The translations under genes were made by a program, and so were the position numbers. This document shows, one piece after another, positions 36-1,699 of a DNA stretch of 64,000 nt. This DNA is from Alphaproteobacteria bacterium (GTDB lineage: Bacteria > Pseudomonadota > Alphaproteobacteria > Bin95), in the NCBI GenBank assembly GCA_964291285.2, contig OZ219785.1:640001-704000 (forward strand), read 5' to 3'. The first letter of the stretch is position 1. Every line of letters begins with the position of its first letter. The notes beneath the pieces were generated by a model. That model ran no database searches and was not told the origin of the DNA. It was given only the letters and a program-made list of their open reading frames with translations.

Positions 36-189
36 GTTCGTGTTTTATGATTTATTTCTAGATTGGCACTTGACATATAGCGGATTGTGATATGATGGTC
101 CCCAGGGAAGCGGTATCCGGAGCCGCGTCCCCGGGTGCTGCGCGGCCGAGCGGCGCCATTTTTGAAAACCTGCGAGAAGCCGACGGGAG
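36..189 (+). repeat. Dispersed element copy 1, 5' part (promoter and start of leader), split by IS110
   Basis: 70-189 aligns closely with the reverse complement of about 54145-54265 (TTGACA..GCGGATTGTGATATGATGGTCCCCAGGGAAGCG...GAGAAGCCGACGGGAG). Confidence 0.9.
70..96 (+). promoter_or_regulatory. sigma70-like promoter, TTGACA-N15-TATGAT with extended -10 TG
   Basis: TTGACA 70-75, TG 88-89, TATGAT 91-96; same motif in copy 3 (54239-54265, minus). Spacer is short. Confidence 0.55.
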
Positions 190-206
190 AGCGACTGTGT
201 TGTCGG

Positions 207-1139
207 TCAAGCTGTTTTCCACGGGGTTCGGTCTCTGAGGATAGCGTTGAGGATTGTGAGGAGCTTTCGTGTGACGGCGGTGAGGGCAGCCTTTTTGGTT
301 TTTCCCTCCGCGATCAGGTGGCGATAGAAGCGTTTGAGGGTTGGGTTATGCCTGGAGGCGGTGAGGGCAGCCATGTAGAGGGTTGCGCGGACGTTGGCGC
401 GTCCTCCCCATATGGTTCTCTTTCCGCGCATGGTTCCGCTGTCGCGGTTGAAGGGCGCGACGCCGACGAGCGCGGCGATGCGCCTTCGGCTGAGGGTTCC
501 GAGTTCGGGGAGATCGGCGATCAGGGTTCGTGCGGTGGCGTCACCGACCCCGGGAACGCTTTTGAGGAGGTCCTCGGCCTGGCGCCATGCGGGGGATTTG
601 CGGATCGCATCGCCGAGCTCGGTTTCGAGGTCGGAGAGTTCGCGTTGCAGGGTGGCGAGCACGCGGTCGACGCTGCGGATCGTGCGACGGCTTGTGAGGC
701 GCCTCCTGCGGTTTCTCTCCGCGGTCATCATCGCGACGATCTGGCGCCGCCGGGCGACCAGCTCGGCGAGCGCGCGGGCCTGCTCGTCAGGCACCGGACG
801 GGGCTCGGGATGGACCGCCTCGGCGAACTGTGCGATCGCCGCCGCATCGAGGGCGTCGGTCTTGGCGAGCCGGCCGGTGGCGCGGGCGAAGTCCCGGATC
901 TGGCGCGGGTTGACCACCGCCAATGGCAGGCCCGCCGCGCAGAGCGCCGCCGCGACCGTGACCTCGAAGCCGCCCGTCGCCTCCAGCACCACGAGGGCAA
1001 CCTCCAGCCCGCCCAGGCGCGCCGACAACTCTTCCAGGCCTTTGCCGTCGCGCGCGACGGCAAAGGCCTCCCCGGACGGGCGCAGATGCACGTCCAGACG
1101 ATCCTTCGCCACGTCGATGCCAACGAATATCCGTTCCAT
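207..1139 (-). CDS. IS110 DEDD recombinase/transposase (310 aa)
   Basis: GIDVAK, VLEATGG and KTDALDA RuvC-like motifs; SVPGVG...DSG C-terminal domain. Confidence 0.95.
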
Positions 1140-1140
1140 G

Positions 1141-1300
1141 TCCCGTCCTTGCAAATGCGGTCTCACACTGCGGACCAAGCGACTGTTCGGGTTCAAAGGA
1201 ACAGCGGACGGGGAACCATGCTCTCCCGCGGTCTTCATAACCTGGGTGCTAGCGGTCTCCCGTCCGCTCCCGCTGTTGCGACTATAGCTGCAACAACGAT
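1141..1300 (-). ncRNA. Predicted bridge RNA (target-binding and donor-binding loops)
   Basis: Minus strand carries ACAGTCGCTT (donor-left match, 1177-1186), GCAAG (donor-right, 1148-1152) and CGGGAGAG (complement of target-right, 1221-1228), the last inside a GCGGACGGG/CCCGTCCGC stem; ends approximate. Confidence 0.8.
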
Positions 1301-1430
1301 CCGGAGAGATACAAGGTGTGTCCGCACCTCGCGCGCGCAATCAGGCGCGCGAGCCGCGCCGGCGCCGACACGCGCCCGCGCGGGATACGCGCGGAAAAGG
1401 GACCCGCTCCCGTCCGCAGAAGGAGGAACG

Positions 1431-1583
1431 ATGAAACAACCGAGCCCTGCCGCCGGGACCTTTGCCGAAGCCTGGGCAGTGGACATGAACGCCGCGAAGC
1501 CGCAGGTGCCGGCGGGCGGAGCGTTATGCCCGGATGGATCACGGAACATGCCCTACACGCATGCAGAACATGACATCTCATGA
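1431..1583 (+). CDS. Small hypothetical protein (50 aa) in dispersed element
   Basis: Strong [10 protein letters not shown]; weak similarity to the copy 3 ORF. Confidence 0.35.
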   Translation: MKQPSPAAGTFAEAWAVDMNAAKPQVPAGGALCPDGSRNMPYTHAEHDIS

Positions 1584-1648
1584 CATTCCATGACACATGG
1601 CGAGGGAGGCCGGGCGCGCCTCATGACACAACATGACATATCATGACA
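1569..1648 (+). repeat. CATGACA heptamers, two triplets at 10-bp period
   Basis: Starts at 1569, 1579, 1589 and 1622, 1632, 1642. Confidence 0.9.
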
Positions 1649-1699
1649 TGGCGCCGGAGCGGGCCGCCGCGGGGCTCCCGCGGGCCTGCCGGCGCGCGG

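Follow-up and report, generated by a model that had tools for sequence, protein, structure and literature searches.

The 64,000-nt stretch analysed here (the window, G000:C1:640001-704000) lies in an alphaproteobacterial genome, G000, of 6,125,366 bp in five contigs with 68% G+C, and carries three copies of a dispersed unit. These copies belong to a genus-restricted family of ~95 self-contained cassettes, and the unit fits no known class of mobile element. A complete cassette of 0.95-1.4 kb consists of an AT-rich head, a GC-rich leader of 230-260 nt, a ribosome-binding site (RBS), one gene and a tail of phased CATGACA repeats. One of the two types of gene encodes a protein resembling the small terminase (TerS) of phages. 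We propose, in a reading that we consider evenly balanced between right and wrong, that the family is a selfish dispersed cassette whose TerS-like protein binds the phased tail of its own unit.

Anatomy of the cassette family

The whole G000 genome was searched with an nhmmer profile of the 171-nt core of the unit, yielding 93 copies at E ≤ 1e-10, or 99 with the cut-off relaxed to E ≤ 1e-3, in agreement with the high genomic copy number that a sequence-only reading of the window had thought probable. A 25-mer within the core, CTCGCGCGCGCAATCAGGCGCGCGA, has 31 exact occurrences genome-wide and 74 when up to 2 mismatches are allowed, and the word CATGACA is found 901 times, against 312 expected by composition. 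The anatomy was drawn from the 80 of the 93 copies that are uninterrupted, the remaining 13 having an insertion sequence (IS) or a truncation upstream. Units are 70-97% similar to one another. Ten master copies share a 1.3-kb stretch with a single open reading frame (ORF) between unrelated flanks, and homology among copies stops within ~20 nt of the array. The 93 units were assigned to classes by crude motifs, as follows.

TerS-type units: 17 of 93, of which 10 are full-length (ORF ≥300 aa)
Class B units: 21 of 93, of which 6 are full-length (ORF ≥185 aa)
Short 'class C' units: 12 of 93
Unclassified or broken units: 43 of 93

A full-length ORF is present in 16/93 units and about three quarters are gene-less or truncated, most units decaying through internal deletion with both ends kept. 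The units are spaced at random, with a coefficient of variation (CV) of the gaps of 0.94 versus 1.0 ± 0.1 for random placement, a value on which regular spacing, one headful apart, was rejected. They are densest on contigs C1-C3, at 17-18 per Mb, and sparser on C4 (7.5 per Mb) and C5 (4.5 per Mb).

The CATGACA arrays follow the cores closely and on the same strand. At least two same-strand CATGACA words lie within 1 kb downstream in 71/93 units, where reverse-strand words amount to six singles, and 101 of the 114 arrays in G000 have a same-strand core within 3.5 kb upstream. An array consists of two or three CATGACA, a spacer of 11-35 nt and three further CATGACA. Successive words lie 10 nt (252 cases), 21 nt (22), 32-33 nt (20) or 42-43 nt (7) apart, distances that place both clusters on one face of the helix. 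The gene runs into this tail: the frame ends in, or a few nt from, the first repeats in 23 of 24 TerS-type ORFs of at least 280 aa from 10 species (..HDKT or ..HDIS before the stop), the exception being one G000 copy whose frame ends ~70 nt earlier, and class-B genes likewise end ..HDKT in the array. Because the period is 10, three repeats give TGA in all three frames. A CATGACA box of pSK41 ArtA, encountered as a literature search result, looks like a coincidence. Downstream of units, a GC-rich module of 171 nt lies between two arrays (15 copies, 11 with arrays on both sides; C3:319181-319351 plus 14 other places, none in the window), and contains the palindrome GCGCGCATTATGCGCG, a hairpin, and an RBS-like GGAGG plus ATG.

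Some 100-130 nt before the core, the AT content reaches 70-77%. The head consensus, ttGTTCaatAtTTttGaAATAtTTCcctatTttgGCTTGAcaTctGG.AAAtTGTG.TA..At, is conserved in all subfamilies and encloses a 10-bp palindrome, GAAATATTTC, which looks like an operator for a dimeric regulator. In the consensus the palindrome is perfect and lies ~10 nt upstream of TTGACA, with TTGTTC before it, in all units; the window copies have only degenerate versions (54290-54270 and 40-60). The head also contains a promoter-like TTGACA-15 nt-TGnTAnnAT, the best hexamer pair being at 15-nt spacing in 35/80 copies, and TG precedes the -10 in 40/80. The description as a canonical sigma-70 promoter was dropped and 'promoter-like' retained, since a strict scan was negative and the commonest hexamer spacing is 15 nt. 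We infer that the head acts as a promoter.

A hairpin, P1, follows the presumed start. In an alignment of 62 sequences, 83.9% of cells pair, versus 41-58% with the partner slid, and double-sided changes number 34 cells versus 14.2 ± 3.0 in shuffled alignments (0/500 shuffles as high); these compensatory changes are support for the hairpin and not proof, since the sequences are related. The core has a possible fold, comprising a closing helix GUGCGCCCU/AGGGUC.., a hairpin CGCGCGCGC-AAUCAG-GCGCGCG, a variable arm and a hairpin CGCGCG-AUAC-GCGCG. It shows almost no covariation, its conservation being at the sequence level, and RNAalifold over the whole leader (MAFFT alignment) gave nothing informative. 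The structured non-coding RNA or leader suggested by the sequence-only reading is thus supported in part, by P1 and not by the self-complementary core. Its suggestion that the unit is undescribed survived comparison with Rfam, where the whole window gave two tRNAs only at the gathering threshold, and 50900-54400 gave 0 matches even at E ≤ 1.

The encoded proteins

The TerS-type master ORF encodes 329-347 aa in 10 units. Pfam Terminase_2 (PF03592) matches at residues 11-71 with an E value of 9e-11 (43 bits against a cut-off of 26.1), and the PHROGs 'terminase small subunit' at 3.1e-12. A PDB profile search returned the SF6 small terminase 3zqp (6.3e-17), 4zc3 (5.1e-16) and 2cmp (8.8e-16). In the family profile, the stretch that aligns with the small terminase of Pam5 spans residues 7-114, and ordinary small terminases of 130-200 aa align over residues ~5-135. 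An AF2 model is confident across the N-terminal ~120 residues, with a predicted local distance difference test score (pLDDT) of ≥90 over roughly residues 11-110, including helices 52-90 and 93-107. The best Foldseek matches of the model are 3zqq_C, with 124 aligned columns but a root mean square deviation (rmsd) of 8.2 Å and E of 0.1, and 4zc3/2cmp, with a TM score of 0.82 and rmsd of 0.8-1.4 Å over 50 residues. The model and profiles indicate an N-terminal helix-turn-helix (HTH) DNA-binding domain, and we propose that the first ~135 residues may constitute a complete TerS core for DNA binding and oligomerisation.

The residues after this N-terminal part comprise helices and disorder; part of this stretch is acidic, and some species have a lysine-rich tail. 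Residues 136-329 (e.g. L016:8450-9031) are strongly acidic, and in G000, G010 and G016 they end in a lysine/arginine run, RRKKQKKKKGKKRR. This basic run, which the other species lack, resembles a eukaryotic nuclear-localisation signal, and may be relevant to an animal-associated lifestyle or may be meaningless. In 24 comparisons against one G000 reference, the ratio of nonsynonymous to synonymous divergence (dN/dS) was 0.09-0.40 over residues 1-135 and 0.23-0.88 over the tail, which argues that the TerS-like protein is maintained. Terminase_2 genes are multicopy in 12/17 genomes of the genus. In IMG/VR no close relative was found, the matches being three loci with 34% identity across the HTH only, and an ESM Atlas query that included the acidic tail gave no usable match. 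The large-terminase families PF03237, PF03354, PF04466 and PF05876 each had 0 matches in G000. A link to resident prophages was rejected, the two large-terminase (TerL) loci in the genus (G016 and G005) having a different small subunit and no CATGACA.

The class-B protein (MTATDP.., ~190-235 aa) is unrelated to the TerS type and is carried with the same head, leader and tail. It forms a conserved family (155 clusters at E ≤ 1e-5) in which many residues are invariant and for which Pfam gave no match. Full-length class-B genes number 4 in G000, ~14 in G012 and ~9 in G007; the protein is present in 15/17 genomes of the genus and in 0/300 genomes of other genera in the class. The sequence-only reading had looked to longer copies carrying an enzyme ORF: the longer copies exist, and their proteins are predicted to bind DNA or are unmatched, and are not enzymes.

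Distribution among species and the copies in the window

Core DNA is present in 13/16 other species of the genus. None was found in G001, G003 and G013 (all ≥100% complete by marker count) or in any of 24 genomes of other genera and families; the check for copies in relatives, proposed from the window alone, was positive inside the genus and negative in these outside genomes. More than 100 occurrences of an exact 33-mer were found, every one in metagenome-assembled genomes titled Alphaproteobacteria or Rhodospirillales bacterium, and this conserved 33-mer is a specific marker of the genus. No blastn match to the unit was found in PLSDB or INPHARED, and full-text literature searches, judged from the search results, gave no description of such a unit. 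Scored core matches per species range from 0 to more than 20, even between sister species.

Empty orthologous sites, proposed from the window alone as a check, were found for copy 1 and for a TerS copy at C2:1363845. The copy-1 site is empty in G008, where the stop of the upstream gene is followed by 4 nt and then the tRNA-Gly promoter. It is filled in G006, G014 and G007, and in G000 holds a unit of ~585 nt plus an IS. Comparison with the empty site places the start of the insert ~21 nt before the window start and leaves at most an ambiguous GGC/GC as junction repeat, such comparisons of unit ends being blurred by GC hairpins resembling repetitive extragenic palindromic (REP) sequences and by IS in the same intergenic regions. 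Immediately downstream of copy 1, the tRNA-Gly(CCC) gene (window 1690-1813) retains a TTGACA-17-CAGAAT promoter of its own. In G012, G015, G010, G016, G003 and G013 the block that begins with this tRNA has been inverted or relocated with respect to the upstream gene, so that the copy-1 site coincides with a rearrangement boundary; units also coincide with rearrangement breakpoints between genomes. The C2:1363845 copy lies between convergent genes that are separated by a spacer of 7-55 nt in seven species (G012, G016, G009, G002, G005, G008 and G010); a unit is present there in G007 and G014, and other GC-rich repeats in G006. These sites show that units have been gained or lost at intergenic positions during speciation.

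Synonymous divergence (dS) between copies within a genome is 0.03-0.22 (G000 median 0.118, 45 pairs), against a median of 0.45 between genomes (150 pairs). The G007 copy at the C2:1363845 locus has a dS of 0.60 to G000 and 0.07-0.08 to other G007 copies, and between G000 and G007 the flanks of this locus are 95-100% identical, the units 63-93%. The orthologues of copy 1 are also more diverged than their own flanks. The low dS within genomes, together with orthologous units more diverged than their flanks, indicates that copies are homogenised within genomes by gene conversion or replacement.

In the window, reading and alignment confirmed the three copies first noticed at 36-189 plus 1316-1650 (+), 51024-51510 (-) and 53871-54290 (-). 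The 25-mer occurs exactly three times (1328-1352 +, 51320-51344 - and 54105-54129 -) and in none of 100 shuffles. The pattern CATGACAN3CATGACA occurs seven times, all within copies 1 and 2, and not in shuffles, so the claim that these two copies end in phased arrays stands. Copies 1, 2 and 3 each contain GATACGCGCG, TTGACA and an RBS with ATG. The common AT-rich head motif that had been described needs one correction: copy 2 has CGAACAAA, the reverse orientation of the TTTGTTCG found at the corresponding place in copies 1 and 3. The features are listed below.

1..189, + strand: copy 1, 5' part, read and aligned; GC-rich 5' extension continuing past the window start
36-69, + strand: AT-rich head of copy 1, followed by TTGACA at 70-75, a 15-nt spacer and TATGAT at 91-96 with TG before it
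~100-135, + strand: hairpin P1 of copy 1, then the first part of the leader, ending ..GACGGGAG
190..1315, - strand: IS110-family IS, foreign to the unit, splitting copy 1 in the core between GGGAG and GTG
1316..1690, + strand: copy 1, 3' part; invariant core with the 25-mer at 1328-1352 and GATACGCGCG; RBS at 1421-1426
1431-1583, + strand: remnant ORF of copy 1, 50 codons, with its ..HDIS terminus within the array
1569-1595 and 1622-1648, + strand: copy 1 array, three CATGACA in each cluster, 27-nt spacer between them
To ~1690, + strand: GC-rich 3' tail of copy 1, stopping just short of the tRNA-Gly promoter
~49760-51020, - strand: IS3-family IS with HTH_Tnp_1 orfA and rve orfB; its end TGGAGTGGGCCCCTGGTCTCGGACAG lies 6 nt past the last CATGACA of copy 2
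51021..51545, - strand: copy 2 (class C, short form); head with CGAACAAA, TTGACA at 51485-51480, hairpin P1
Within copy 2, - strand: second hairpin CGCGCCGGCGCG, then an A-run; core 25-mer at 51344-51320; RBS
51186-51091, - strand: ORF of copy 2, 31 codons; two CATGACA at 51095-51079 and three at 51053-51027
51856 to ~51560, - strand: remainder of copy 3 past the IS, without a CATGACA array; copy 2 directly next on the same strand
51857..53870, + strand: DDE_Tnp_1 IS with a 599-aa transposase at 51957-53756, 19-bp inverted ends CCCGACTTCCGCAACTCGG and TAG flanks
53871..54345, - strand: copy 3 (class A leader, class-B gene start); extended 5' end; head with TTTGTTCG
Within copy 3, - strand: TTGACA at 54265-54260, TATGAT at 54244-54239, hairpin P1, core 25-mer at 54129-54105, RBS
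54007-54005, - strand: ATG of copy 3, starting a class-B ORF (MRATDPQLAAMPAERLAPAA..) that is interrupted at 53871

The window copies are decayed members of the family, and two are split or cut by IS. Copy 1 has an internal deletion of ~800 nt compared with the G007 unit of the same locus, which retains a full 192-residue class-B gene, and the class-B start of copy 3 is cut by an IS; the short ORFs of the window are therefore remnants. Copy 2 is 93% identical to a unit at C2:710998, and its 31-codon frame differs from copy to copy. The idea of a leader with a short peptide accordingly found no support. The alternative put forward with it, a non-autonomous unit, fits, the window copies being derived from longer gene-bearing units.

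The IS110-family IS (Pfam DEDD_Tnp_IS110 5.7e-24, Transposase_20 5.5e-20) has 13 copies in G000, all 100% identical, and most are flanked by ..(G/A)GGAG on one side and GTG(C/T)G.. on the other. Five of the 13 lie at the same position of a unit core, which makes the conserved core a preferred target; the copy-1 unit lacks this IS in G006 and G014. The DDE_Tnp_1 IS, also foreign to the unit, interrupts the ORF of copy 3 at 53871 and has its ends in or beside at least 8/93 units (copy 3 plus at least 7 others). The IS3-family junction is found after the arrays of at least two further units (C2:1255398 and C2:1111152). Other GC-rich, REP-like hairpin repeats (e.g. GTCGTCCCGGCCCC..GGGGCGAC) crowd the same intergenic spots and are inserted within long units (L016 7600-7720 and 9100-9320; L032 200-860). 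The units are assembly breakpoints, sites of rearrangement and preferred landing pads of at least three IS families.

Explanations for the family

We infer that the units are selfish. In the proposed mechanism, the TerS-like protein would form a ring with its HTH motifs one DNA turn apart. The ring would bind the phased CATGACA repeats in which its own gene ends, in the way that a phage small terminase recognises pac, and this pair of protein and site would be the selfish core of the unit. The proposal draws on two precedents given in PMC4737164, namely that neighbouring HTH motifs in the rings of small terminases are separated by about one turn of B-DNA, and that in the SPP1 pac site direct repeats surround the promoter of terS and the start of the gene.

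Known systems share parts of this design. An SPP1/SF6-type small terminase (Terminase_2; 3ZQP/3ZQQ, 4ZC3, 2CMP) has the same N-terminal HTH, and a helical oligomerisation core that the family protein may share; SPP1/SF6 terS with pac also has direct repeats beside or inside the gene at a spacing that fits HTH motifs one DNA turn apart. The family differs in having no large terminase or phage gene alongside or elsewhere in the genome, ~10 intact copies per genome beside ~85 decayed ones, an acidic extension of 190 residues, and exact heptamers at the 3' end of the gene and not at its promoter or 5' end. Two CATGACA clusters around a spacer also recall the pac site of phage P1, which has a short repeated word in two clusters, one on each side of a spacer, and is cleaved between them; the P1 repeats, however, are Dam sites in a single phage genome.

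Phage satellites, among them the phage-inducible chromosomal islands (PICIs), redirect packaging through a TerS of their own, and the unit is like them a chromosomal element with its own TerS-type protein, a cognate candidate site and no large terminase. Satellites are 5-15 kb long, with an integrase, att sites, a replicon and regulators, and are present in one or few copies; in comparison with PICIs and elements like the Staphylococcus aureus pathogenicity islands (SaPIs), the unit has one gene in 0.95-1.4 kb, no integrase, and ~95 copies. Miniature inverted-repeat transposable elements (MITEs) and non-autonomous IS derivatives likewise form many short intergenic copies by internal deletion of fewer gene-bearing masters with both ends kept; here, terminal inverted repeats (TIRs) and a consistent target-site duplication (TSD) are missing, and the masters are without a transposase. 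REP sequences and bacterial interspersed mosaic elements (BIMEs) are also GC-rich, hairpin-forming intergenic repeats, and IS110-family elements insert into REP as they do into the unit at one fixed position, but REP sequences are 20-40 nt long, whereas the units are 0.4-1.4 kb, modular and gene-bearing, with a promoter-like head.

A number of results weigh against the selfish cassette as proposed. The ends of 18 class-A copies, 5' (A)AAyATGAA.. and 3' CATGACA plus ~15 nt, have no inverted match and so no TIR; there is no consistent TSD or target motif, and no repeat common to the flanks of other copies. In this the sequence-only reading was right, having seen no TIR, TSD or transposase, and none was found in ends, empty sites or master genes. 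The TerS-like protein has no enzyme, transposase, recombinase or nuclease fold (Terminase_2 being its only Pfam match, with a fold search in agreement), and the class-B model matched generic helical hairpins only (Z < 8), its C-terminal beta-hairpin/helix repeats barely covered. G008 has units and a class-B gene yet no TerS gene, so TerS is dispensable for the persistence of units. All examined insertions are old and common to several species, with no fresh junction seen, and some differences in presence could be deletions. According to PMC4737164, the isolated SF6 DNA-binding domain is a weak, largely non-specific binder, so a ring reading exact heptamers would depart from precedent. Orientation is unbiased with respect to the upstream gene (57 of the 93 units point the same way, 36 the opposite way). 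A strand bias relative to replication, as in IS200/IS605-type single-strand transposons and their PATE derivatives, was not apparent from local GC skew (44 co-oriented, 49 anti-oriented), the skew itself being weak in G000, with genes at 1940 versus 1831. The strict sigma-70 scan called no promoter in 50950-54400. Metatranscriptome contigs from runs X1 and X2 cover the unit but extend upstream of the -35 into the head, Logan contigs giving neither transcript starts nor strand; X1 has no coverage of 54291-54402, and enrichment of the core over a flanking gene in the RNA runs is no higher than in DNA run X4.

Packaging piracy is the strongest rival, though an unlikely one. Under it, each unit would be a minimal beacon akin to a phage satellite: its TerS-like protein, possibly assisted by the class-B protein as an adaptor, would bind the CATGACA array and draw in the large terminase of a phage infecting the cell. 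Packaging would begin at the unit, which would be transduced along with neighbouring host DNA. The TerS core with phased repeats at the gene end suits this idea, as do the known satellites that redirect packaging with a TerS of their own. So does the long acidic C-terminal extension, which is under weaker but real constraint (the tail dN/dS given above); TerS C-termini contact the large terminase. With no large terminase of the four Pfam families in G000, the packaging partner would have to come from outside. Against it stand the lack of a close phage relative (the three IMG/VR loci alike across the HTH only, and no INPHARED DNA match), the two prophage-like TerL loci of the genus with their other small subunit and no CATGACA, and the random spacing of the units. 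Transduction alone, moreover, gives neither new loci nor ~95 copies.

The selfish cassette might be extended into a transposase-free system built from phage packaging parts, an idea we rate as doubtful and marginally below piracy. Its ~100 pac-like arrays would either recruit a phage large terminase, acting as a genome-wide transduction beacon, or provoke cuts repaired from other copies, a homing-like drive; such cuts at arrays and their repair would explain the strong concerted evolution. The leader RNA and the ~200-aa class-B protein would then be further parts of the same machine.

Slightly weaker again, and improbable in our judgement, is a host regulon, in which paralogous host genes and small RNAs stand under one regulatory leader, with the palindrome and arrays as operators, and have spread by duplication and been kept for a cellular function such as symbiosis or stress. 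Head, palindrome GAAATATTTC and promoter-like elements are indeed kept in all subfamilies, the core is conserved genus-wide even in gene-less copies, and both proteins are conserved or under purifying selection. Phased direct heptamers are moreover typical of response-regulator sites. A regulon sits poorly, however, with the three quarters of units that are gene-less or truncated (16/93 with a full-length ORF) and with a copy number that ranges, among sister species, from 0 to over 20 scored matches. Presence also varies at orthologous intergenic sites, at least 13 units destroyed by IS persist without apparent purging, and the core lacks covariation.

Very unlikely, finally, is that the units are MITE-like passengers moved in trans by an accompanying IS such as the IS3-family element adjoining the arrays: its end TGGAGTGGGCCCC.. 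comes immediately after the array of copy 2 and after those of at least two further units, the 15 nt after arrays (yCCGCCGGGGRGGyCC) and the ends of the 171-nt module loosely resemble that end, and three IS families are repeatedly associated with units, but no inverted copy of any IS end lies at the 5' side of units, the IS copies are 100% identical and recent whereas the units are 70-97% alike and old, the IS interrupt units instead of flanking them, and the copy-1 unit is without IS in G006 and G014.

If the selfish cassette with a TerS-like protein and its own phased tail is the right reading, a kind of dispersed element would have reached ~2% of genome loci without a recognisable transposase, its selfish core being a protein for phage DNA recognition together with the site of that protein, and would count as an additional class of mobile or repeat element in bacteria. 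It would also provide a natural small terminase that reads an exact repeat in phase, a case relevant to the old debate on how pac sites are recognised, and would raise the possibility that elements drive transduction or gene conversion across whole genomes in uncultured bacteria associated with animals.

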